A stretch of 64,000 nt of DNA from Escherichia coli (GTDB taxonomy: Bacteria; Pseudomonadota; Gammaproteobacteria; Enterobacterales; Enterobacteriaceae): NCBI RefSeq assembly GCF_001677475.2, contig NZ_CP015229.1; one strand, 5' to 3'. Below the pieces are notes generated by a model. The model worked only from the letters and a program-made list of their open reading frames with translations. It was not told the DNA's origin and made no database searches. Positions 9,184-21,611 of this stretch are shown here, in pieces (the first letter of the stretch is position 1; each line of letters opens with the position of its first letter). The position numbers and the translations under genes are program-made.

Positions 9184-11178
9184 ATGAGTTTTGCAGCTAC
9201 AGATTATCCATCCGGCGCACTAACTGGATCGGGTACACATAACGTGACTTTGAGCGGCAGCGCAGTTCCTGATGGAATGTTACTGTTTGCAAGCTTAGGG
9301 GGTACAGAAACAGTAGGGGAACTATTTACTTATTCTATTAAATTAAAAACTCCTGACATCCTGAACCTGGGCTATGTTTCCCCCGCAGCCAACCTACAGC
9401 TCAAACCGATGGTGGGCAAAGATCTGTGCGTCAATATCGAATTGGATGGCGGCGGAAAACGTTACATCAGCGGGCTGGTGACGGCGGCACGCGTGGCTGG
9501 TCATCAAGGACGTTCGGTGGTGTATGAACTGCGGCTCGAACCGTGGTTAAAAATACTGACCCACACTAGTGACTACAAAGCGTTTCAAAATAAAAACGTG
9601 GTGGAGATCCTGGATGAGGTACTGGATGAGTACCCCTGGCCAGTGGAAAAACGACTGGTGGAAAATTATCCGACTCGCGCCTGGCAGGTGCAGTACGGTG
9701 AAACAGATTTCGATTTTATTCAGCGCCTGATGCAGGAGTGGGGTATCTACTGGTGGTTTGAGCACAGCGAGAACAGTCACACGTTAGTGCTGGCTGATGC
9801 CATTAATGTCCACAAGGCATGCGCAGATTCGCCGCTGGTGTGTTATTACCAGAAAGGGCTGAAACTGGACAAGGAGTTTATCCATACCATCACAGCAAAT
9901 GAAAGTCTGCGCAGCGGACAGTGGGTGCTGAATGATTTCGACTTTATGAAGCCGCGTTCACTGCTGAAGAGCACCGTGGCTAATCCGCGTGAAACCGGCC
10001 TTGCTGAATATGAGCACTACGAATGGCCGGGAGATTACTTCACAAAGAGTGAAGGTGAAATGCTGACACGCATTCGCATGGAAGAACAGCGTAGCCCCGG
10101 TAGTCGGGTACAGGGCAGCGGCAATATTCGTACCCTGATAACGGGTTTTACCTTCACCCTGGAAAACTATCCGACAGCCGAAGTGAACCGGGAATATCTG
10201 CTGGTACAGACCACGCTATTTATACAGGACAATGCGCAACACAGCGGCCAGGAGCAGCATTTCTCTTACTCAACCAGCTTTGAACTGCATCCCACCAGCG
10301 AAGTTTACCGCCCACAACGAACCCTGTGCAAACCCCACACTAAAGGCCCGCAGAGCGCAATCGTCACCGGCCCGGCAGGGCAGGAAATCTGGACAGATAA
10401 ATATGGACGGGTGAAAGTTCAGTTTGGCTGGGATCGTTACGGTAAGAATGACGAAAATAGTTCCTGCTGGGTCCGTGTCAGTTATCCGTGGGCGGGTAAA
10501 GGATTCGGTGGCATTCAGATCCCGCGCATTGGTCAGGAAGTACTGGTGGATTTCAAAAACGGTGATCCGGATTTACCGATAATTGTTGGGCGTACCTACA
10601 ACCAGGACACCATGCCACCGTGGGGACTACCGGGCGCAGCGACGCAAAGCGGATTTTACAGTCACACTATCGGCGGCGGCCCAACCAATGCCAACGCACT
10701 ACGTTTTGAGGATAAACCTGGCGGTGAAGAGGTCTGGCTACATGCCGAAAAAGATCAGCGGATTGAAGTAAATAATAATGAAAGCCACTGGGTGGGCAAT
10801 AATCGCCTTAAAGTCATTGATAAAACAGAAACAGCGATAATTGGTGAGGAACGTTCTCTTACAGTTCAGATGGATGATACCTCCCTTGCCGGACAAAACA
10901 AAACGATTCAGGCCGTACAGAATTTACGCCTTGCTGCGGGAGATTCCATAATTCTTAGTTGTGGGAACACTATCCTGCAAATGACCAGTGACGGAATATT
11001 TAATATAACCTGTAAGAATTTTAATATTACTGCAACAGAAAATGGAAAGATAAATACACAATCAGGTCAGCTTGATTTAAATATGAATAACAGGGCGGCA
11101 GATATACTTCCGCCTGGAACATCGGAAAAAACAGCCCTTCAATTGGCGATAGACGTCGCCTTCATGACTAAAAAATAA
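9184..11178 (+). CDS. vgrG: Type VI secretion spike protein VgrG
   Basis: 664 aa; N-terminal gp27-like and gp5-like OB/beta-helix sequence (e.g. [60 protein letters not shown]). Confidence 0.9.
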
Positions 11179-11228: not shown

Positions 11229-11681
11229 ATGACGGAGTATTATCTCAATGAAACTGTTGTAAGTTTTTCCGGGAATATTATTCAGGACAGTACTATTAAT
11301 ATGCTTCGCCTCAGCGATCCCGACGCTGCACTCATTATCAGCCGGGGCCAGATGCAGGAAGGAGACGAATTAGCCTCCCAGATTGAACAGCAAATGAAAA
11401 AACTGGAGAAACAGGTAAAGGATCTTCACTACACGCCCGTTCAGGTAACACGGGTGGGGATTAATGACGGTGAAGAAGGACTGGAAATACAGAGCCAGTT
11501 TCTCCGGGGTAACGAGCAGGTGTACCAGTGTCAGGTGGCATTTGTATTGCCGGGTGAGCGGGTCATGATGGCCTTCACCTACGCCCGAACCACACCGCTG
11601 ACCCCGGCAGATATGACGCGCTGGGCTGAAATTAAAAAGAATCTGCGCTTCAGGATGCGGCAGGAAGCCGGGACGAATTAA
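11229..11681 (+). CDS. DUF1795/Eag-family chaperone for prePAAR effectors
   Basis: 150-aa ORF between vgrG and the prePAAR Rhs gene; size and position typical of Eag/EagR chaperones; sequence-level family call not verified. Confidence 0.6.
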   Translation: MTEYYLNETVVSFSGNIIQDSTINMLRLSDPDAALIISRGQMQEGDELASQIEQQMKKLEKQVKDLHYTPVQVTRVGINDGEEGLEIQSQFLRGNEQVYQCQVAFVLPGERVMMAFTYARTTPLTPADMTRWAEIKKNLRFRMRQEAGTN

Positions 11682-11699: not shown

Positions 11700-14600
11700 A
11701 TGGAAGAGGCATTCTGGGCGGCAAGGCAGGGTGATGCCCTGCTGCATACGTCGTTTATGGCAGATGTGCTGGGGGCAGTTGTAGAGGTTGCCGCCACAGC
11801 CCTGGTGGATGTTCTGGTTGTCGGAACCATGGCGGCGCTGGGCGGAGTTGAAGTGGCAACGCTGGGCTGCTCAACCATTTTAGCGATCGGTATAGCAACA
11901 GCGGTATTTATGTCGTATCAGGGCTGGAATGACCGAATCAGTAGGGAAAGTGAGCAACTGGCGAACTGGCTTTTCCCGCCTCAGATTGAAGGTTACATCC
12001 TCACCGGCTCTGGCGACACATGGATCAACAGCAAACCTGCCGCGCGGGCCGCGGCGACTGCGGCATCGCGGCAGGACATTGAGGCGCAGGAGGCGCAGGC
12101 GAAGGCGGAACAGGAAGAAGCGCAGCGTCAGGAGGATGCCAGAACGTTCCTGGATGTGGCCGGGGAATATCTGGAAATGGCGGGGGCCATAGCCCTGGCG
12201 GTTAACCCGGTGACAGGGCCTGTGCTGATGTCCCGGGCGCTGCACGACCAGCTCAGTACGGAAGAAGGGCGTTCTGAAATGGTGGATGGCGTGACACATT
12301 TTGTGTCGGAACTATGGCAGCCCACCGTGGCCAGTGCGGCCCCGGGCTCCACCCCGACCCCTGACGATAAAATCGACTGCCATAAACATCCCTCCTCACT
12401 GACGCAGTTTCTCGCACAAAAAAAAGCCGCCTTTCTGGATGACCCCCTGGGAACGGCCCTTAACCTGCTGAGTCCGGGCGGTATGCTGGAAACCGCCTTT
12501 CAGGGAGTGAATGCGGTTATTGGCAGCATCAGTAATCTGTTCAAAGGCGATGATGAACCGCCCGCAGCGGAATATATCGCGGAAGGCGCGCGGGATGTGC
12601 GTATCAACAGCCAGCCGGCGGCACGCAGCGGGGCACGCTGCACCTGCGAGGCCAGGGTGGTGAATGAGCCGGGGAACGGGGCGTTTGTGTCACCGGATGT
12701 CCGCATTGGCGGTCCGTTACTGGTGGTCAGGGATATCAGAAGCGGCAGGTCGCAGATAACCCTGGTGGCAACCGTGGCGCTGATGTTTCTTCGCCCGGGC
12801 AAAATGCTTTCTAAAATCGCCTGTTTTGCTGCCAGTGTCGGGATGGGGGTGATGACGCAGAAGGCCATCAGTGCCCTTCCGCATCCGGTCAATGCCGCCA
12901 CCGGAGCCAAATATCTGGCCGATGACGATGATTTTGACTTCAGTCTGCCGGGCCACTTTCCGCTGGACTGGCAGCGCGTGTACAGCAGTCGTGACGACCG
13001 CACGGAAGGGATGTTCGGGCAGGGCTGGAGTGTAATGTATGAAGTCAGCCTCGAGCGCACGCCGGGTACTGCTGACGAAAACTGTATGACCTTTGTGTCG
13101 GGCATGGGACGACGTCTGGATATGGAGGCCGTGCTGCCGGGGAGCGGGTTTTACAGCCCCGGCGAAGGACTGGCAGTACGGCGGGGTGAGCAGGGGCACT
13201 GGCTTATCAGCAGCGATGACGGGCAGTTTTTTCTGTTTGAGGCCGACCCGCGTCACCCGCAGCGCCAGCGGCTGAAAATGCTGGGCGACCGCAACAGCAA
13301 CTGTCTGAATCTGTACTACGACGAGCTGGGGCGCATCACGCAAATCAGCGGTGAACAGCAGCGTCCGTGCATCCGTCTGCATTATGAACTGGCGGCGCAT
13401 CCCCGGCGGGTGACACAGATTTATCAGCATTTCCCTGAGATGGCTCCTTTACTGCTGCGTCGTTACCGCTATGACGAGGCCGGCGACCTGAACGGCGTGT
13501 ACGACAGCACGGGGCACCTGCTGCGCGAGTTTGCTTACGACGAAAACCACTGCATGACCCTGCACCGCCAGCCGGGCGGCGAAGGGTATTATTACCAGTG
13601 GGGCTGGTATGAAGGCCCGGATGACGCAGCGTGGCGGGTGACGGGGCACCACACGGACAGCGGTGAACAGTACCGGCTGGCGTGGAGCCTGGCGGCACGC
13701 AGGCTGTGCGTGACGGACGGGCTGGGGCGCACGCGTTATCATCAGTGGGACGCGCAAAATCAGGTGACGGCGTACCAGGACGAAGCCGGGCAGGTGACGA
13801 CGTTCCGCTGGAGCGACGAAGAACGGCTGTTACTGGGAATGACCGATGCGCAGGGCGGCAAATGGCGCTATGTGTATGACCGGCAGGGGCATATCACGGA
13901 GACGCACGACCCGCTGGGGCGGGTGGCACAGACACAGTGGCACCCGGTGTGGCACCAGCCGGAAACGGAGGTGGACGCGGCGGGGAACAGCTGGTGCTGT
14001 GAGTACGATGAACGCGGCAATCTTCTTGCGGTGACCGACCCGCTGCAGCAGAACACCCGGTATCAGTATGACCGCCACGGCCAGGTGGTGCAGATAACGG
14101 ATGCGCGCGGGGGGAATAAATACCTTCAGTGGAACGAAGACGGGCAGCTCATGCGGCACACGGACTGTTCCGGCTCGCAGACGGCCTGGTTCTACGACGA
14201 ACGCACGCGGCTGATACGGATGACAGACGCGCAGAGCCACAGCACGCGCTACGGGTATGACGACAGCGGCCACCTGACGGAGGTGATACTGGCGGACGGC
14301 CGCACGGTGAATTACCAGTCGGACGCGGCGGGCAGGCTGGTGAAGTACACCAGCCCGATGGGGAGGATAACGCGCTGGCAGCGGGACGGGCAGGGCCGGG
14401 TGCGCAGCCGGACAGACGCGACGGGGCGCAGGACGGCGTTCGGGTACGATGCCTACGGGCGTCTGGTCACGCTCACGAACGAGAACGGAGAAAGCTACCG
14501 GTTCCGCCATGACGTGCTGGACCGTCTGGCGGAGCAGATAAATCCGGACGGCTGCCGCCAGACGTACCGCTACAACGCGCTGAACGCGGTCACGGAAGTG

Positions 14601-16415
14601 GTGTTCACCGGGGACCGGGGCGGTGAAATCCGCCACCGGCTGGCACGTGATGCGGCGGGCCGGCTCACGGCAAAGGAGACAGCCGATGGCCATACGGAAT
14701 ACGTCCATGATGCGGCAGACCAGCTACTGGAAATCCGCCGCCGACGGTCGGATGCCGGGGAAACAGACGCACCGGAGATTATCCGTTTCAGTTACGACAG
14801 ACTGGGGCGGATGCTGACCGAGGAGACGGCGCAGGGCGTCCTGACCCATCAGTACGATGAACTCAGCAACCGGACAGCCACCACCTTTCCGGATGGCAGA
14901 ACGCAGCGTCATCTGTACTACGGCAGCGGCCATCTCCAGCAGATAAATCTGGACCGGGAGGTCATCAGCGAGTTCACACGTGACGCCCTGCACCGGGAAG
15001 TGCTCAGAAGTCAGGGGCGACTGAGCACGCGGCAGCTTTATGACCCCGCCGGGCGGCTGAAGCGCAGGGAGACATACAGCGGGATGCGCGGGGTGGTACC
15101 GGAGACGTTCACGGACCGGCAGTACAGCTACAGCGGCGAGGATGAATTGCTGAAGACGCGGCACAGCCGGCGGGGGGAAACGGATTACGTCTACGACCCC
15201 ACGGGGCGCATCACGGCGTGCCGCTCGGAGGATGAGGGGTATCTGGCGAGCTGGCAGTACGACGCGGCGGGAAACCTGCTGGGGAGGCGCGCGGGGGAAA
15301 GGGCCACGGCAGAAAACAGCGTGGTGCCGTTCAACCGGCTGATGTCTTACCGTGGTGTGCACTACCGTTATGACGAATTTGGCCGGACGGTGGAAAAGGA
15401 GGGCCGGAGCGGCACGCAGAGTTACCGTTATGATGCGGAACACCGGATGGTGGAAGTGACGACAGCGCGGGGGACATACCGGTATGTGTACGATGCGCTG
15501 GGGAGGCGGACGGAAAAACAGCACATCAGCCCTGACGGTAAAGCGTACAACCGGACGACATTTTTATGGGACGGAATGCGGCTGGCGCAGGAGAGCAGGC
15601 CGGAGGGAATAAGCAGCCTGTATATCTACAGCGACCCGGGGAGTTATGAACCGCTGGCGCGGGTGGATAAGGCGGGCAAAGAGGGCCCGAACCGGATACT
15701 GTATTTTCACACGGATGTGAACGGTGCGCCGGAAGAGATGACGGACAGTGACGGGAAAATCGTGTGGGAGACGGGGTATCAGGTCTGGGGTAACACGATA
15801 CAGGAGAAGGACCACGGCGGGGTGGAGCAGAACCTGCGCTACCAGGGACAGTACCTCGACAGGGAAACGGGGCTGCACTACAATCTGCACAGGTACTATG
15901 ATCCGGATGTCGGGCGGTTCATGGTAACGGACCCGATAGGGCTGGCGGGGGGGCTGAATCTTTATACTTATGCGCCTAATCCAGTAAGCTGGATAGATCC
16001 CCTTGGTTTAAGTTGTTACTTTAATTCTAAGTCTAATCGCTGGCATGACAGGCAGACAGGTCGTTTTACAAAACGACCAACAGATCCTTCAGAATTAGTT
16101 CATAATGGCCGAATTGACAAGGCTGATATAGATGTTTGGGCTAGTCAAGGAGGGATTCCAAATACATGGGGGCATGATCCGTTAAAATTCCCCAGTGGTG
16201 GTTTTAAATATGATGCTGGTAATTATACTGTTCATGGTCATGGTGCTAATCCATCTGCGGCAGCTAAATTTCCTAATTCTAATGCGGCAAATGGGCCGAC
16301 AGCGAGCATGAAAAATACTTCAACAGGTGAAGTGTTTAGAACCGATGGAACTTGGGGGACATTCAAATCAGATGCCAATGGTGCTCATATCCCCCTTGAT
16401 GGCTCACCTTATTGA
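11700..16415 (+). CDS. Rhs-family T6SS effector with N-terminal prePAAR motif, transmembrane segments, PAAR region, YD-repeat shell and variable C-terminal toxin domain
   Basis: 1571 aa; AARQGDALLH matches the prePAAR AARxxDxxxH motif; hydrophobic stretches follow; two ...PAAR... segments; numerous YD repeats; DPIGL...DPLGLS demarcation then low-GC 134-aa tail. Confidence 0.9.
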   Translation: MEEAFWAARQGDALLHTSFMADVLGAVVEVAATALVDVLVVGTMAALGGVEVATLGCSTILAIGIATAVFMSYQGWNDRISRESEQLANWLFPPQIEGYILTGSGDTWINSKPAARAAATAASRQDIEAQEAQAKAEQEEAQRQEDARTFLDVAGEYLEMAGAIALAVNPVTGPVLMSRALHDQLSTEEGRSEMVDGVTHFVSELWQPTVASAAPGSTPTPDDKIDCHKHPSSLTQFLAQKKAAFLDDPLGTALNLLSPGGMLETAFQGVNAVIGSISNLFKGDDEPPAAEYIAEGARDVRINSQPAARSGARCTCEARVVNEPGNGAFVSPDVRIGGPLLVVRDIRSGRSQITLVATVALMFLRPGKMLSKIACFAASVGMGVMTQKAISALPHPVNAATGAKYLADDDDFDFSLPGHFPLDWQRVYSSRDDRTEGMFGQGWSVMYEVSLERTPGTADENCMTFVSGMGRRLDMEAVLPGSGFYSPGEGLAVRRGEQGHWLISSDDGQFFLFEADPRHPQRQRLKMLGDRNSNCLNLYYDELGRITQISGEQQRPCIRLHYELAAHPRRVTQIYQHFPEMAPLLLRRYRYDEAGDLNGVYDSTGHLLREFAYDENHCMTLHRQPGGEGYYYQWGWYEGPDDAAWRVTGHHTDSGEQYRLAWSLAARRLCVTDGLGRTRYHQWDAQNQVTAYQDEAGQVTTFRWSDEERLLLGMTDAQGGKWRYVYDRQGHITETHDPLGRVAQTQWHPVWHQPETEVDAAGNSWCCEYDERGNLLAVTDPLQQNTRYQYDRHGQVVQITDARGGNKYLQWNEDGQLMRHTDCSGSQTAWFYDERTRLIRMTDAQSHSTRYGYDDSGHLTEVILADGRTVNYQSDAAGRLVKYTSPMGRITRWQRDGQGRVRSRTDATGRRTAFGYDAYGRLVTLTNENGESYRFRHDVLDRLAEQINPDGCRQTYRYNALNAVTEVVFTGDRGGEIRHRLARDAAGRLTAKETADGHTEYVHDAADQLLEIRRRRSDAGETDAPEIIRFSYDRLGRMLTEETAQGVLTHQYDELSNRTATTFPDGRTQRHLYYGSGHLQQINLDREVISEFTRDALHREVLRSQGRLSTRQLYDPAGRLKRRETYSGMRGVVPETFTDRQYSYSGEDELLKTRHSRRGETDYVYDPTGRITACRSEDEGYLASWQYDAAGNLLGRRAGERATAENSVVPFNRLMSYRGVHYRYDEFGRTVEKEGRSGTQSYRYDAEHRMVEVTTARGTYRYVYDALGRRTEKQHISPDGKAYNRTTFLWDGMRLAQESRPEGISSLYIYSDPGSYEPLARVDKAGKEGPNRILYFHTDVNGAPEEMTDSDGKIVWETGYQVWGNTIQEKDHGGVEQNLRYQGQYLDRETGLHYNLHRYYDPDVGRFMVTDPIGLAGGLNLYTYAPNPVSWIDPLGLSCYFNSKSNRWHDRQTGRFTKRPTDPSELVHNGRIDKADIDVWASQGGIPNTWGHDPLKFPSGGFKYDAGNYTVHGHGANPSAAAKFPNSNAANGPTASMKNTSTGEVFRTDGTWGTFKSDANGAHIPLDGSPY

Positions 16416-16425
16416 GATTATTAAT

Positions 16426-16755
16426 ATGAATTTGCAAGAAATAAAAAATAAAGTCTTATCTCTTCCTACAATAATGAATTTAGCGGATGAGCTATTAATA
16501 ATTGACGAGTTGATGACTATTGATGTTAATGATTTGATTGAAAATCAAGATATCTTTAAATCTATTATAGATGCATTAGAATTATCACATATTGATTCTG
16601 GGTTTATGGAGTTAACAGAAGAAAATGAGAGTTCATTTATAAACTTCTACAAATGGCTTAATAAAACAAATAATAAATTTAACTTGGGAATAAATGCTAA
16701 CACTATAGATAGTTTTAGTTTGACTGTTGAAGATGTGAAAAAAATGATGTTATAG
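16426..16755 (+). CDS. Candidate Rhs immunity protein
   Basis: Track ORF 16327..16755 overlaps the rhs 3' end; first ATG after the rhs stop is 16426 (109 aa); AT-rich like the Rhs C-terminal domain; position immediately after toxin domain. Confidence 0.5.
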   Translation: MNLQEIKNKVLSLPTIMNLADELLIIDELMTIDVNDLIENQDIFKSIIDALELSHIDSGFMELTEENESSFINFYKWLNKTNNKFNLGINANTIDSFSLTVEDVKKMML

Positions 16756-16800: not shown

Positions 16801-17130
16801 TCAACTCTCGTTCAGTACACTAAACATCCCGTTCCGCATCCCCTTAACCACCTGTTTAACCTGATAAAGCTCCTCCCGCAGTTCCTGCATCTCGTCACTG
16901 TCAGCGATGATGGTCAGGCACCCATCCGAGATCTTTACAGTCACGCCTGTCCCGGTATCAAATCCCGCCTCTTTCAGCCAGTCGCCCTTAAGGTGCAGGC
17001 TGGGGTGTTGTGAATAATACCGGGCTATACCGGTTGTGCGATCTTCGTGGCGGGCTCTGACATAGCCGACTTTATAGCGGCGCTGTGTTTTGGAAATGGT
17101 GACTTCTGGCGTAATATCGTGTTCAGCCAT
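16801..17130 (-). CDS. SymE-family toxin homolog (AbrB-fold, type I toxin family), copy 1
   Basis: 109 aa; LHLKGDWLKEAGFDTGTGVTVKISDGCLTI resembles the K-12 SymE core (LKGQWLEAAGFATGT...EGCIVLT) as I recall it; GAGGTAG RBS. Confidence 0.8.
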   Translation of the reverse strand: MAEHDITPEVTISKTQRRYKVGYVRARHEDRTTGIARYYSQHPSLHLKGDWLKEAGFDTGTGVTVKISDGCLTIIADSDEMQELREELYQVKQVVKGMRNGMFSVLNES

Positions 17131-17195
17131 GATTAACTACCTCGATTAGTTGCTTGTGGTGAGCGGCTGTTACAGGCGGCAACCTGTAGCAGTCG
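17124..17195 (+). ncRNA. Predicted cis-antisense sRNA overlapping the symE-like start (SymR-like antitoxin RNA candidate), copy 1
   Basis: Plus-strand sigma70-like promoter inside the symE 5' coding region (TTGGAA, 16-nt spacer, TAATAT at about 17090-17117) and a downstream hairpin (about 17166-17192) whose non-Watson-Crick positions are G-U wobbles only in the plus-strand transcript. Confidence 0.35.
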
Positions 17196-17202
17196 CGTTA
17201 AA

Positions 17203-17432
17203 TATCAACGCATTACCTTCATTACCTGCTTCATCTTCTCCTGCGTGATCGCCATATCCAGAATGCGGCAGATCACTTCCTGATCGTCTGCTTTAAGCTC
17301 ATCAACCTGCTTACACAGTTCCTTTAACCGCTTGTTTTTAATATCGAAAACAGGAGCGGTGGAACCTTCTTCACCCAACAGCAGGTGGTCAATACTGACT
17401 TCCAGAAGCTGGGCCAGCTTAATGATGTAATC
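17203..17432 (-). pseudogene. 3' remnant of an XRE-family HTH regulator gene truncated by the H-repeat element
   Basis: Minus-strand frame reads ...DYIIKLAQLLEVSIDHLLLGEEGSTAPVFDIKNKRLKELCKQVDELKADDQEVICRILDMAITQEKMKQVMKVMR-stop with no start codon; frame closes just inside the IS end. Confidence 0.45.
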
Positions 17433-18722
17433 AGGGAAAGATCACGTAATGCTGCTTTTTTGTACTAAACAATTCGCATTTTATGTTTAAAAATTGAGAT
17501 ATTCCTCATTACATAAAGCTGTTTTTTATTGCTTATACATGATCAAATACTCCTTACATAATTAAGGAGAACAAAATGGAACTTAAAAAATTGATGGAAC
17601 ATATTTCTATTATCCCCGATTACAGACAAGCCTGGAAAGTGGAACATAAATTATCGGATATTCTACTGTTGACTATTTGTGCCGTTATTTCGGGTGCAGA
17701 AGGCTGGGAAGATATAGAGGATTTTGGGGAAACACATCTCGATTTTTTGAAGCAATATGGTGATTTTGATAATGGTATTCCTGTTCACGATACCATTGCC
17801 AGAGTTGTATCCTGTATCAGTCCTGCAAAATTTCACGAGTGCTTTATTAACTGGATGCGTGACTGCCATTCTTCAGATGATAAAGACGTCATCGCAATTG
17901 ATGGAAAAACGCTCCGGCATTCTTATGACAAGAGTCGCCGCAGGGGAGCGATTCATGTCATTAGTGCGTTCTCAACAATGCACAGTCTGGTCATCGGACA
18001 GATCAGGACGGATGAGAAATCAAATGAAATTACAGCTATCCCTGAACTTCTTAACATGCTGGATATTAAAGGAAAAATCATCACAACTGATGCGATGGGT
18101 TGCCAGAAAGATATTGCAGAGAAGATACAAAAACAGGGAGGTGATTATTTATTCGCTGTAAAAGGAAACCAGGGGCGGCTAAATAAAGCCTTTGAGGAAA
18201 AATTCCCACTGAAAGAATTAAATAATCCAGAGCATGACAGTTACGCAATTAGTGAAAAGAGTCACGGCAGAGAAGAAATCCGTCTTCACATTGTTTGCGA
18301 TGTCCCTGATGAACTTATTGATTTCACGTTTGAATGGAAAGGACTGAAGAAATTATGCGTGGCAGTCTCCTTTCGGTCAATAATAGCAGAACAAAAGAAA
18401 GAGCCAGAAATGACGGTCAGATATTATATCAGTTCTGCTGATTTAACCGCAGAGAAGTTCGCCACAGCAATCCGAAACCACTGGCACGTGGAGAATAAGC
18501 TGCACTGGCGTCTGGACGTGGTAATGAATGAAGACGACTGCAAAATAAGAAGAGGAAACGCCGCAGAATTATTTTCAGGGATACGGCACATCGCTATTAA
18601 TATTTTAACGAATGATAAGGTATTCAAGGCAGGGTTAAGACGTAAGATGCGAAAAGCAGCCATGGACAGAAACTATCTCGCGTCAGTCCTTGCGGGGAGC
18701 GGGCTTTCGTAATCTTGCCCTG
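17432..18722 (+). mobile_element. ISAs1-family (H-repeat type) insertion sequence, intact copy
   Basis: About 1.29 kb; imperfect terminal inverted repeats CAGGGAAAGATCAC / (rc) CAGGGCAAGATTAC; single 378-aa transposase ORF. Confidence 0.75.
17576..18712 (+). CDS. ISAs1-family transposase (H-repeat-associated protein)
   Basis: 378 aa; sequence strongly resembles E. coli H-rpt proteins (YdcC/YhhI type) from memory. Confidence 0.85.
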
Positions 18723-18736
18723 ACCATCTGACGGAT

Positions 18737-18922
18737 GTGGCTGGTAATCCATCAAACATTGCTAATAGATTTTCAAAGGTCATTGATGGAAAAGATGTTC
18801 AGTTTGTTACTAAGGACTCTTTATTTGCCGGGCCGAGCGGTAAGTTTGCGCAATTTGAATCTACTTGGCAGGTTTTGGATAATGGTTCATTACGATTAAC
18901 AACAGTGATCCCGAAATTATGA
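18737..18922 (+). CDS. Possible orphan toxin C-terminal fragment downstream of the IS
   Basis: 61-codon GTG-initiated ORF whose frame opens exactly at the IS right end; AT-rich; ATGA overlap with next ORF. Confidence 0.3.
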   Translation: MAGNPSNIANRFSKVIDGKDVQFVTKDSLFAGPSGKFAQFESTWQVLDNGSLRLTTVIPKL

Positions 18923-19239
18923 TTAGAGAATTTGAAGAGAAAATGTCTGATTTGTTTGGTGTTGATGCAACATCATTCGATCCTGAATATGCGCAGTGGA
19001 CATATTTATTTAAGAAGGGTTTATTTTCACTTGAATTTGTTTATGCTCTGGATAAAACAATATCTACGGCTTTATATTATAATGAAAATTTATTGTCTTT
19101 TTATTTTGCCAATGGTCTGGAACACCTTAGCATAGAAGACAATAAAATTCATGGTGTTATTGTTAAAGGTAATACAACCAGAAAACTAGAGATAGATCCA
19201 TTAAATTTAATTATAAAATGGGAAGATTCATTAATATAA
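18919..19239 (+). CDS. Possible orphan immunity protein
   Basis: 106 aa, AT-rich, translationally coupled to the upstream fragment; same position relative to terminator/symE as the rhs immunity gene. Confidence 0.35.
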   Translation: MIREFEEKMSDLFGVDATSFDPEYAQWTYLFKKGLFSLEFVYALDKTISTALYYNENLLSFYFANGLEHLSIEDNKIHGVIVKGNTTRKLEIDPLNLIIKWEDSLI

Positions 19240-19280
19240 TGATTGCAATATTCCATTTCAATAAGAAATAACCAATAAAA

Positions 19281-19320
19281 AGCCGGAGTGCTATTAAATC
19301 TTCCGGCTTTTTTATTATTT
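19281..19320. terminator. Bidirectional rho-independent terminator (copy 2)
   Basis: AGCCGGAG-loop-CTTCCGGCT hairpin followed by TTTTTTATTATTT. Confidence 0.55.
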
Positions 19321-19648
19321 AATTCTCGTTCAGCACACTAAACATCCCGTTCCGCATCCCCTTAACCACCTGTTTAACCTGATAAAGTTCCTTCCTCAGT
19401 TCCTGCACCTCGTCGCGCTCCGCAATCAGGATCAGGCACCCCTCCGAGATTTTCACAGTCACGCCCGTCCCGGTATCAAATCCCGCCTCAGCGAGCCAGT
19501 CGCCTTTAAGGTGCAGGCTGGGGTGCCGTGAATAATACGTGGTCATGCCTGTTTTACTGTTCTGATGGCGGGCGCTGACATAGCCCACCTGATACTGGCG
19601 CTGTGTTTTGGAAATGGCGACTTCTGGCGTAATATCGTGTTCAGCCAT
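19319..19648 (-). CDS. SymE-family toxin homolog, copy 2
   Basis: 109 aa, about 80 percent identical to copy 1 by eye; same RBS and flanks. Confidence 0.8.
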   Translation of the reverse strand: MAEHDITPEVAISKTQRQYQVGYVSARHQNSKTGMTTYYSRHPSLHLKGDWLAEAGFDTGTGVTVKISEGCLILIAERDEVQELRKELYQVKQVVKGMRNGMFSVLNEN

Positions 19649-19716
19649 GATTAACTACCTCTGTTAGTTGCTTGTGGTGAGCAGATTGTCAGTGTTGGTA
19701 GCACTGGCAATCTGCG
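19642..19716 (+). ncRNA. Predicted cis-antisense sRNA overlapping symE-like start, copy 2
   Basis: Same promoter-like hexamers (about 19608-19635) and a 13-bp-arm hairpin (about 19682-19714) with a single T-G position that pairs only in the plus-strand RNA. Confidence 0.35.
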
Positions 19717-19889
19717 TTAAAAATCAGTGTATTACTCTCTTTTCCATGGAAAGATCACGTAACGCTGCTTTTTTGTACTAAATAATTCGCATTTTATGTT
19801 TAAAAATTGAGATATTCCTCATTACCTAAAGCTGTTTTTTTATTGCTTATACATGATCAAATACTCCTTACATAATTAAGGAGAACAAA

Positions 19890-20372
19890 ATGGAACTTAA
19901 AAAATTGATGGAACATATTTCTATTATCCCCGATTACAGACAAGCCTGGAAAGTGGAACATAAATTATCGGATATTCTACTGTTGACTATTTGTGCCGTT
20001 ATTTCGGGTGCAGAAGGCTGGGAAGATATAGAGGATTTTGGGGAAACACATCTCGATTTTTTGAAGCAATGTGGTGATTTTGATAATGGTATTCCTGTTC
20101 ACGATACCATTGCCAGAGTTGTATCCTGTATCAGTCCTGAAAAATTTCATGAGTGCTTTATTAACTGGATGCTTGACTGCCATTCTTCAGATGATAAAGA
20201 CGTCATTGCAATTGATGGAAAAACGCTCCGGTACTCTTATGACAAGAGTCGTCGCAAGGGAGCGATTCACGTTATTAGTGTGTTCTCAATAATGCACAGT
20301 CAGATTCCTTGGAAGATCAAGACGAATAAAAAAACAATGAGATTACAGCTGTTTCTGAATTTCTTAACATAA
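19890..20372 (+). pseudogene. Degraded second ISAs1/H-repeat transposase gene (N-terminal 130 aa conserved, then divergent and truncated)
   Basis: 160-aa ORF identical in its first part to the intact copy, then diverging into ...[31 protein letters not shown]; element upstream sequence conserved from about 19745. Confidence 0.7.
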
Positions 20373-20513: not shown

Positions 20514-21611
20514 TTATAAAGCCCATCGATTTCGCCCACTTTCTTTCGCCCGGTATAACGCAGCGTCGGCATCTGAAATAATTTGTTCAGCCGTTTTTGC
20601 GGGAGCAGAACAGGTAATCCCCTGACTAACCGTAACGAATGCATTAACAGCAGATGCCTGATGTGGGATAGCTGCCAGTTTAAGTTCTTGCTTCACTCTG
20701 GCTGCTACCGTCTCTGCTTCCGGCAATGTTGCATTAAAAAGTATGATGGCAAACTCTTCGCCACCATAACGGACAACAACATCCTCCGACTGGCGAGTTG
20801 AACGCTGTAGAGCGTCGGCAACTTGTATTAGACAACGATCCCCAGCAGGATGCCCGTAAGTGTCGTTGTAACGTTTAAAAAAATCGACATCCAGCATAAT
20901 AAGAGCAAATGACCCGCCGTTATCTATCGCGTCGTGTAAGATACTGTTCATTGCACGTCGGTTTGCTATCCCAGTTAAAGGATCACGATGTGCTAATGCA
21001 TCAAGGCGATTAATTAACTGGTTGTTATAACTGTTTTGTACCCATGCTTCTTCAAACCAACGTAACAAAATGAGTCGCCCACCATATAGCGCCAGTGAAA
21101 AAATACACCATACAACAGCAAAATGAATATTGATCTGTTGATTAAGCATAAGACTCGCTATTGGAGTGGTGAACCATAAGGGAATGACAAATGCGAGCAA
21201 TGATGGGGTATGGAAATAAAGTGCGACAACGCCACTAAGCATTAATAATACACATAGTGGATAAGCAAACTGCAGCGTCCAGTACGCAATAAAGTGATAA
21301 CTACACCATGACCATAGCAGGCTCAGGGCAACTAATAGCACCTGGATAGGTAATGTTTTTTGCCGAGGGATGAGTAGTAAACCACTGCAAATCAGCAGAA
21401 TACCCGTTGCAGATATATCAATAGAATGTATAAGGCTTTTTTCATTTAACCAGGGTGGAGTAAGGTCATTAAACAGAACACGGCGCAGCAAAATTATCAA
21501 TGCAAAACTGACATTGATAAAAGCAAACCATGGCAAACTAATCGTCATGCCGCGAATAACCATATCGCGGCGGGTTTTCCATGAGTGATGCGTTTTTCTT
21601 CGTTCAGCCAT
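20514..21611 (-). CDS. Membrane-anchored diguanylate cyclase (GGDEF domain)
   Basis: 365 aa; N-terminal hydrophobic helices; RYGGEEF active-site motif. Confidence 0.8.
   Translation of the reverse strand: MAERRKTHHSWKTRRDMVIRGMTISLPWFAFINVSFALIILLRRVLFNDLTPPWLNEKSLIHSIDISATGILLICSGLLLIPRQKTLPIQVLLVALSLLWSWCSYHFIAYWTLQFAYPLCVLLMLSGVVALYFHTPSLLAFVIPLWFTTPIASLMLNQQINIHFAVVWCIFSLALYGGRLILLRWFEEAWVQNSYNNQLINRLDALAHRDPLTGIANRRAMNSILHDAIDNGGSFALIMLDVDFFKRYNDTYGHPAGDRCLIQVADALQRSTRQSEDVVVRYGGEEFAIILFNATLPEAETVAARVKQELKLAAIPHQASAVNAFVTVSQGITCSAPAKTAEQIISDADAALYRAKESGRNRWAL

Follow-up and report, generated by a model that had tools for sequence, protein, structure and literature searches.

The subject of this analysis is a pair of small open reading frames (ORFs) in a 64,000-nucleotide stretch of the Escherichia coli contig NZ_CP015229.1 (assembly GCF_001677475.2), hereafter the window, where they directly follow a copy of the insertion sequence (IS) ISEc1 and lie ~2.3 kb downstream of a main rhs gene and its likely immunity gene. 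Together they are, in all likelihood, the remains of an orphan Rhs C-terminal toxin and immunity (rhs-CT/rhsI) module truncated by the IS: the first, of 61 amino acids (aa), would be the relic of a tRNase of the type known from Klebsiella pneumoniae 342 (Kp342), and the second, of 106 aa, an intact and most likely working orphan immunity gene. We propose that the module once lay 3' of the main type VI secretion system (T6SS) Rhs effector, and that an ISEc1-associated deletion would have taken away the initial half of its toxin domain along with the DPxGL junction and a stretch of rhs core. This would have left 66 toxin codons that are non-catalytic, non-exportable and not recombinable onto the main rhs gene, together with a surviving downstream immunity gene whose product would neutralize Kp342-type tRNases arriving from neighbours via Rhs/T6SS or CdiA.

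The identity of the toxin half follows from comparison with proteins of known structure. In a phmmer search of the PDB, the tail by itself matches residues 62–121 of 6CP9_A, the CdiA-CT of Kp342, with an E-value of 2.6e-7, while a profile of the toxin family and the full-length toxin of a metagenomic contig (L015) match the same chain at E 1e-28 and E 1.2e-22, respectively; the family profile also finds 6CP8_A (E. coli 3006) and 6VEK_A, far more weakly. The strands typical of the C-terminus of the family (SLFxGPxGKF, STWQV and RLTTVIP) are kept as well. On these alignments, the 61-aa ORF is a CdiA-CT(Kp342)-family toxin domain, of the BECR-fold tRNase kind, reduced to its C-terminal half. The Kp342 toxin cleaves the acceptor stem of uncharged tRNA-Ile(GAU) and is stimulated by EF-Tu, EF-Ts and GTP (PMC9086364); the CdiA-CT/CdiI pair of Kp342 (PDB 6CP9) goes back to Gucinski et al. 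2019, as summarized in that review. Scans of the tail, the reconstructed full toxin, its homologues and the 106-aa protein against Pfam and NCBIfam gave nothing usable. The CdiA-CT(Kp342) toxin domain and its CdiI have a model in neither Pfam-A nor NCBIfam, despite the 2019 structure, and family members, of which metagenomes yield at least 506 clusters (50% identity), carry the annotation ‘hypothetical protein’.

Relatives of the tail are found at the ends of toxin-delivery proteins. An exhaustive HMMER search of 1.84 billion representatives with the toxin domain returned 506 clusters at E ≤ 1e-3, of which 294 reach E ≤ 1e-10, and in nearly all of the best 150 of the 506 the match runs to the last residues of the protein, with protein lengths reaching 5,040 aa. 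RHS repeats were present in six of the six long matches checked (1,155–2,228 aa), and the domain also terminates a 4,050-aa CdiA of Cronobacter malonaticus (annotated as ‘hemagglutinin repeat-containing protein’), whose gene overlaps a 117-aa ORF downstream. The domain is likewise carried by VENN-motif proteins of Moraxella bovis, by Ralstonia megaplasmids near a ShlB/FhaC gene, and by a Demequina protein with an Rhs core end. The overlapping order of toxin and immunity gene seen in the window recurs in L015, in a further locus (L018), in Cronobacter and in Demequina. A peptide-pattern scan of genome contigs, made with a narrow pattern, retrieved only two loci, from Salinicola and Demequina, and no named enterobacterial genome with a full-length Rhs protein that carries a close relative.

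Two relatives are close enough to reveal what the window has lost. In L015, the Rhs core end PNPLKWIDLLGL is fused to an intact toxin (the uninterrupted version reading PNPLKWIDLLGLCKGEIDPKKFDYFFGRITSSPHNTARSQQMATVMKQLGV...RLTTVIPKL and a stop codon). Downstream of this toxin, and overlapping it by ATGA as in the window, comes a 106-aa ORF (P0016) that is 85% identical to the one in the window. In a word-index search, the closest protein to the tail was an 83-aa ‘hypothetical protein’ of Escherichia marmotae located within an orphan rhs-CT/immunity array; this orphan copy is 96% identical in DNA to the window and still has the N-terminal part of the toxin. It retains the rhs core end LNLYAYAPNPLKYVDPLGL, and its upstream DNA reads LNLYAYAPNPLKYVDPLGLCKTEIDPKKFDYFFGRATSSPYNTTRS, a stop codon and then QMATVMKQLGV..., that is, an Rhs core end with DPxGL followed by a toxin N-terminal part broken by the stop. 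Besides this premature stop, the E. marmotae toxin has Tyr at the position of H170. The word-index search returned only five short proteins (80–108 aa), and a stand-alone family of small proteins was considered on that account; it was rejected because the E. marmotae frame runs upstream to the Rhs core end and because the domain ends long proteins.

For the immunity half, structure prediction and synteny carry the assignment. AlphaFold2 (AF2) models the 106-aa protein with a predicted local distance difference test (pLDDT) of 92 and a predicted template-modelling (pTM) score of 0.82, as a helix (residues 2–13) and nine strands, and CdiI(Kp342) consists of one N-terminal helix and nine beta-strands (PMC9086364). 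The only Foldseek matches of the model in the PDB below E 0.001 are the chains 6cp9_B, 6cp9_H and 6cp9_D (E 2e-6 to 6e-6, TM 0.77–0.83), and the next match after the 6CP9 chains stands at E 0.018 and TM 0.30. When the window protein was aligned with the ORFs located downstream of homologous toxins in four further contigs, the resulting profile matched a single PDB sequence, 6CP9_B (CdiI of Kp342), over nearly its full length and at E 7e-6. A transitive chain leads in the same direction, from the window protein to an ORF in the metagenomic locus L004 (E 0.003) and from there to CdiI (9e-9). By itself, the 106-aa protein retrieved only noise from the PDB with phmmer (designed TIM barrels). Given its predicted fold together with synteny, we consider the family assignment sound and regard the 106-aa ORF as a gene for an immunity protein with the predicted fold of CdiI(Kp342), with a weak direct sequence link. 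Compared with L015, the tail has a ratio of non-synonymous to synonymous substitution rates (dN/dS) of 0.12 and the 106-aa ORF one of 0.11, which marks both as coding remnants and not chance ORFs. A first-pass annotation had described a GTG-initiated 61-codon ORF that overlaps an AT-rich 106-aa ORF by ATGA and had suggested that a toxin tail is followed here by its immunity gene, a proposal that would fall if no homologue stood at a polymorphic-toxin C-terminus and the ORFs were not conserved. We confirm both ORFs and their overlap, and the matches to 6CP9_A and 6CP9_B along with the synteny support the reading as a polymorphic-toxin tail and a cognate-type immunity gene; since homologues of the tail are indeed found at the extreme C-terminus of CdiA as well as RHS-repeat proteins, and both ORFs show conservation, the proposed refutation fails.

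The point of truncation coincides with the right end of ISEc1. This end lies at 18722, where ...CTTTCGTAATCTTGCCCTG is common to the window and two E. coli ISEc1 copies, all three diverging beyond it; homology to the toxins of L015 and of another locus (L002) begins at 18722–18724, and two draft contigs begin exactly at 18724. The right end in the window is 95–96% identical to annotated ISEc1 copies, which E. coli records label ISEc1 family transposase, and the element is bounded by imperfect terminal inverted repeats (CAGGGAAAGATCACGTAA and, as reverse complement, CAGGGCAAGATTACGAAA). No target-site duplication was found at ISEc1, the flanks GATGTAAT and ACCATCTG being different, and the left flank is a fragment of a helix-turn-helix (HTH) gene whose 74 aa match the E. 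coli S10 protein WP_001401944.1 with 100% identity. The missing duplication and the different truncated gene on each side indicate a deletion or IS–IS recombination after insertion, with the IS at its end-point, and not a simple insertion. An E. coli assembly (GCA_018428365.1; L005, 4927–7794) has an otherwise near-identical locus in which the sequence left of the IS is unlike that of the window: the symE module is separated there from the IS next to the toxin tail by a DUF1722 gene and a partial ISEc1 copy. Across these loci, the left side of the IS is variable among strains and the IS–toxin junction fixed.

These observations also change how the relation between IS and toxin tail is to be understood. 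Where the first-pass annotation spoke of a pair ‘captured’ downstream of the H-repeat, the IS did not acquire the fragment; an IS-associated deletion would instead have cut into a pre-existing orphan module. Its statement that the 61-codon ORF begins in frame exactly at the right end of the IS holds for the frame, which is that of the transposase, and not for the position, as the IS ends at 18722 and the GTG lies 15 nt beyond. The frame is open from 18713, immediately after the transposase TAA, because the toxin frame happens to match the transposase frame, a coincidence with a 1-in-3 chance, and in the parental toxin the GTG corresponds to an internal Val codon, which reads GTT in L015. As an element, this ISEc1 is ordinary: like the H-repeats of E. 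coli Rhs loci, it measures 1,291 bp, encodes a DDE transposase of 378 aa and lies within an rhs locus, a placement shared by many E. coli genomes, and ISEc1 matches occur in 4,997 of 5,426 complete E. coli genomes. It differs in being a deletion end-point with no duplication and with truncated genes on both sides.

Loss of the N-terminal half disables the toxin. The active site of the Kp342 toxin comprises a Lys-Tyr-Thr triad (K157, Y160, T255) with H170 and R252 (PMC9086364). In the numbering of the 6CP9_A chain (offset 138), K157, Y160, H170, R252 and T255 are K19, Y22, H32, R114 and T117, and in the family they fall into the motifs KKFDY, SPHN and RLTT. With its beginning at chain residue 61/62, the window tail keeps R252 and T255 and lacks the other three of the five, whose KKFDY...SPHN segment belongs upstream of the IS junction and is absent from the window. 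Also absent are the first ~48 residues of the toxin domain and the DPxGL junction, and what stands upstream of the tail is the end of ISEc1, not a delivery protein of which the tail could form the extreme C-terminus. Neither blastn nor tblastn detected homology between 18723–19239 and the rest of the window, including the main rhs gene (11700–16415); the activation of an orphan module in Salmonella used 522 bp of core homology (PMC3967940). With three catalytic residues, DPxGL and the core homology missing, the toxin half can neither act nor be resurrected by recombination, and the window copy is, as far as its sequence tells, a remnant of a family member and not a functional one. Only the immunity half can still matter.

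The same losses decide against the idea, raised in the first-pass annotation, that the module is a silent reservoir cassette awaiting recombination onto the main rhs gene to deploy a new toxin tip. Recombination with the main rhs gene is indeed a way in which orphan rhs-CT modules can become active (PMC3967940), and the module is close to the main Rhs/immunity pair; its toxin half is nevertheless deprived of DPxGL and of three catalytic residues, it has no DNA homology to the main rhs gene, and nearby repeats are only IS copies and symE modules, between which a crossover cannot rebuild the toxin. We therefore consider a reservoir highly unlikely. Very improbable, too, is a new role for the 61-aa peptide, for instance in binding the immunity protein as a non-toxic decoy or partner, in a Rhs-independent pair. 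The preserved C-terminal strands, the low dN/dS of the tail and the stand-alone 80–88 aa versions that gene callers predict in other contigs would fit such a role, but the short E. marmotae version is visibly the terminal piece of a longer frame that a premature stop interrupts and the short version in another metagenomic locus (L019) is another IS truncation, the GTG start is neither conserved (GTT in L015) nor preceded by a Shine–Dalgarno sequence, and half a BECR domain is unlikely to fold when its helical N-terminal half is gone.

If the toxin half is dead, the question is whether the immunity gene is maintained. We polarized the differences between the window and E. marmotae with L015 as outgroup, which places three synonymous changes and one non-synonymous change on the window branch; the E. 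marmotae branch has one synonymous change against 13 non-synonymous ones, a stop codon among them, as well as a 1-nt deletion causing a frameshift (Fisher's exact test, p 0.019). This pattern on the E. marmotae branch implies that the module is decaying there, and, on these small counts, the immunity gene appears to be kept in E. coli. The ten E. coli loci that were retrieved show 100% identity to one another across 731 bp that span the junction, which points to one event in one lineage, and the module is absent from the 5,426 complete E. coli genomes searched with megablast and blastn, where only the IS end was matched. A competing reading is that both halves are dead relics, untranscribed or untranslated leftovers in a young clonal lineage that has had too little time for disabling mutations to arise. 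The identity of the ten loci, by which the event may be recent, the absence from complete genomes, the pseudogene state of the E. marmotae copy and the failure to find a strong promoter or Shine–Dalgarno sequence all agree with it, and it is set against by the difference between the two branches, by a 106-codon ORF that is fully open at 28% GC, and by the preservation of the native ATGA coupling and of a terminator. On balance, we judge dead relics to be somewhat unlikely.

As to how a maintained immunity gene could be expressed, the surroundings offer two routes. No terminator-like site was found between the transposase and immunity genes, so far as the scan of that interval goes, and read-through from the IS transposase would supply a transcript on which the tail ORF and the native ATGA overlap would pass translation on; alternatively, a weak sigma-70-like promoter site inside the toxin remnant could serve. 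Downstream, a hairpin with a 12-bp stem, which a simple terminator scan missed because its loop measures 12 nt, is likely a bidirectional intrinsic terminator for the immunity transcript and the convergent symE-like gene. A stronger version of the first route holds that the IS keeps the immunity gene in service through transposase read-through, re-initiation on the tail after the TAA at 18710–12 and hand-over at the ATGA. Were this the case, the dead tail would be kept as a translational leader, and the cell would be protected from Kp342-type tRNases delivered by T6SS/Rhs or by contact-dependent growth inhibition (CDI); we hold it to be distinctly unlikely.

Several points weigh against a working immunity gene of the CdiI(Kp342) family. 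BLASTP finds no alignment between the 106-aa protein and CdiI(Kp342), and hhalign of the window protein with P0016 against a CdiI-family alignment gives only a weak match (E 0.004, probability 8.6%). No convincing Shine–Dalgarno sequence precedes the 61-aa or the 106-aa ORF, and the region has seven promoter-like sites where 3.7 are expected, among which the site within the toxin remnant is a weak match. That the immunity protein is made and protects is what we infer. Most of the low dN/dS relative to L015 may predate the truncation, the branch counts are small in size, and selection within the E. coli lineage is not measurable because its copies are 100% identical. Nor is the gene universally kept, as its decay in E. 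marmotae attests. Finally, as a CdiI protein is usually specific to the toxin it is paired with (PMC9086364), protection would reach only close relatives of the lost toxin, and none of these were found in the 5,426 complete E. coli genomes.

Set beside the CDI system of Kp342, the window pair shows the same order of toxin and immunity gene with a stop/start overlap, a tail that aligns with the C-terminal half of 6CP9_A and conserves R252 and T255, and an immunity model with the helix and nine strands of 6CP9_B (TM up to 0.83). In contrast to that system, delivery in the relatives L015 and E. marmotae is by an Rhs core with a DPxGL-type junction and not by CdiA with its VENN motif, and the window copy has no N-terminal half with K157, Y160 and H170. 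Identity to the Kp342 toxin is ~35–40% over the aligned tail (read from the alignment by eye), and the immunity protein is ~18–19% identical to CdiI(Kp342), so that cross-protection is not expected. The module also resembles the orphan rhs-CT/rhsI modules described by Poole et al. 2011 (PMC3150448) and Koskiniemi et al. 2014 (PMC3967940), with a toxin fragment that has neither a start nor export signals of its own, a cognate immunity gene behind it, and low GC in the DNA of both. In the window, GC is ~0.28 for the 106-aa ORF and 0.26 for the main immunity ORF, compared with 0.58–0.60 for the rhs core, and the module sits 3' of the cluster of VgrG, Eag-like, Rhs and immunity genes, the position of an orphan. 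Typical orphan modules differ in that some rhs core is retained (522 bp in S. Typhimurium), which makes recombination possible, whereas the present module has none; because the IS removed the core and half of the toxin, only an immunity function can persist. Orphan immunity genes of T6SS and CDI (for example PMC10539506 and PMC12247911) likewise occur without a functional cognate toxin in the genome, and by analogy the window gene could guard against non-kin attackers; it differs in being a single gene and not an immunity array.

Our analysis gives names to two ‘hypothetical proteins’ that lie outside the coverage of Pfam and NCBIfam, and it indicates that the Kp342-type tRNase/immunity pair, whose structure was solved as a CDI system, also rides on Rhs proteins in Escherichia. 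The locus is a clean case of an IS that destroys a toxin and spares its immunity gene, the expected route to orphan immunity genes. It is at the same time an ordinary relic of IS activity in E. coli rhs loci that leaves the understanding of such systems unchanged, and its practical use lies in annotation and in predicting which strains may resist which toxins.

Table 1. Features of the rhs region of the window, in order of position
Feature	Position	Strand	Remarks
VgrG	9184-11178		T6SS/rhs locus
DcrB/DUF1795-family protein (Eag chaperone family)	11229-11681		Pfam E 9e-19; precedes main Rhs
Main Rhs protein	11700-16415		1,571 aa
Small low-GC ORF, likely immunity gene of main Rhs	16426-16755		GC 0.26
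symE-like gene, convergent	16801-17130	-	Pfam SymE_toxin
isrA small RNA matches inside symE-like genes	16931-17059, 19449-19577	+	Rfam 115 and 104 bits; above gathering score of 51
SymR-like antisense RNAs at 5' ends of symE-like genes	17125-17199, 19643-19718	+	Rfam 48 and 38 bits; gathering score of 61 not reached
HTH gene, 3' part (residues 59-132 of 132 aa)	17208-17431	-	Left flank of the IS; cut by the IS
ISEc1 (ISAs1-family ‘H-repeat’)	17432-18722	+	1,291 bp; ends set by aligning other copies
DDE transposase gene, intact	17576-18712	+	378 aa; Pfam DDE_Tnp_1_assoc, DDE_Tnp_1; TAA at 18710-12
Toxin remnant (by alignment)	18723-18922	+	Last ~66 codons of an Rhs-CT domain, CdiA-CT(Kp342) BECR tRNase family
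61-codon GTG ORF	18737-18922	+	61 aa; shares ATGA (18919-22) with next ORF
Promoter-like site, TTGAAT-17-GATAAT	18855-18883	+	Inside toxin remnant, 36 nt before immunity start; 9/12 consensus
106-codon ATG ORF	18919-19239	+	106 aa; intact; GC ~0.28
Hairpin with A-run and T-run flanks	19277-19312	.	12-bp stem; -16 kcal/mol, z -3.8; 0/200 shuffles as stable
Second symE-like gene	19319-19648	-
Second ISEc1 copy, degenerate	19745 to ~20440
GGDEF gene	20514-21611		Beyond second ISEc1 copy

Upstream of the module, the N-terminus of the main Rhs protein, MEEAFWAARQGDALLHTS, fits what we take to be the prePAAR motif, AARxxDxxxH. Its C-terminal toxin, which follows DPLGLSCYF..., has no Pfam match except for a sub-threshold one to Ntox47 (E 0.06).

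Each of the two Rhs-CT/immunity modules is followed by a convergent symE-like gene of the type I toxin class (Pfam SymE_toxin E 6e-22), and the two copies are ~84–87% identical. The same symE/HTH pair also comes after an Rhs fragment in E. coli S10, and in E. marmotae the orphan is trailed by a symE remnant; from this company in S10, in E. marmotae and in the window, the symE module seems to travel with rhs orphans.

Truncated relatives of the toxin occur elsewhere. In L019 (JGI 3300078161, 737–2087), a toxin homologue cut to 88 aa (LRPAQNAQQLARIGV...) stands beside an IS110-family transposase gene and is followed by a shortened immunity-like ORF of 91 aa, an independent IS truncation within the same toxin family, which suggests that the pattern recurs. 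In L004 (JGI 3300000714, 654–1264), an 80-aa toxin tail starting at MKRLGI precedes a 121-aa CdiI(Kp342)-like ORF (BLASTP E 9e-9 to CdiI); upstream, in place of a called Rhs or CdiA gene, there are a DUF6364 gene and a 40-aa ORF.

Two further observations concern ISEc1. In E. coli A15 (L017:2582-2600), the sequence outside the right end of the element, AGGATTTGACGGATGAAG, is alike at ~13 of 18 positions to ACCATCTGACGGATGTGG at 18723–18740 of the window, and the genes downstream are unrelated to those of the window; this likeness could be due to chance or to a target preference of ISEc1. The second ISEc1 copy in the window is ~92% identical to the first, with a transposase ORF cut to 160 aa (19890–20372) and a left end that reads CATGG, not CAGGG, and it appears to stop before the GGDEF gene.

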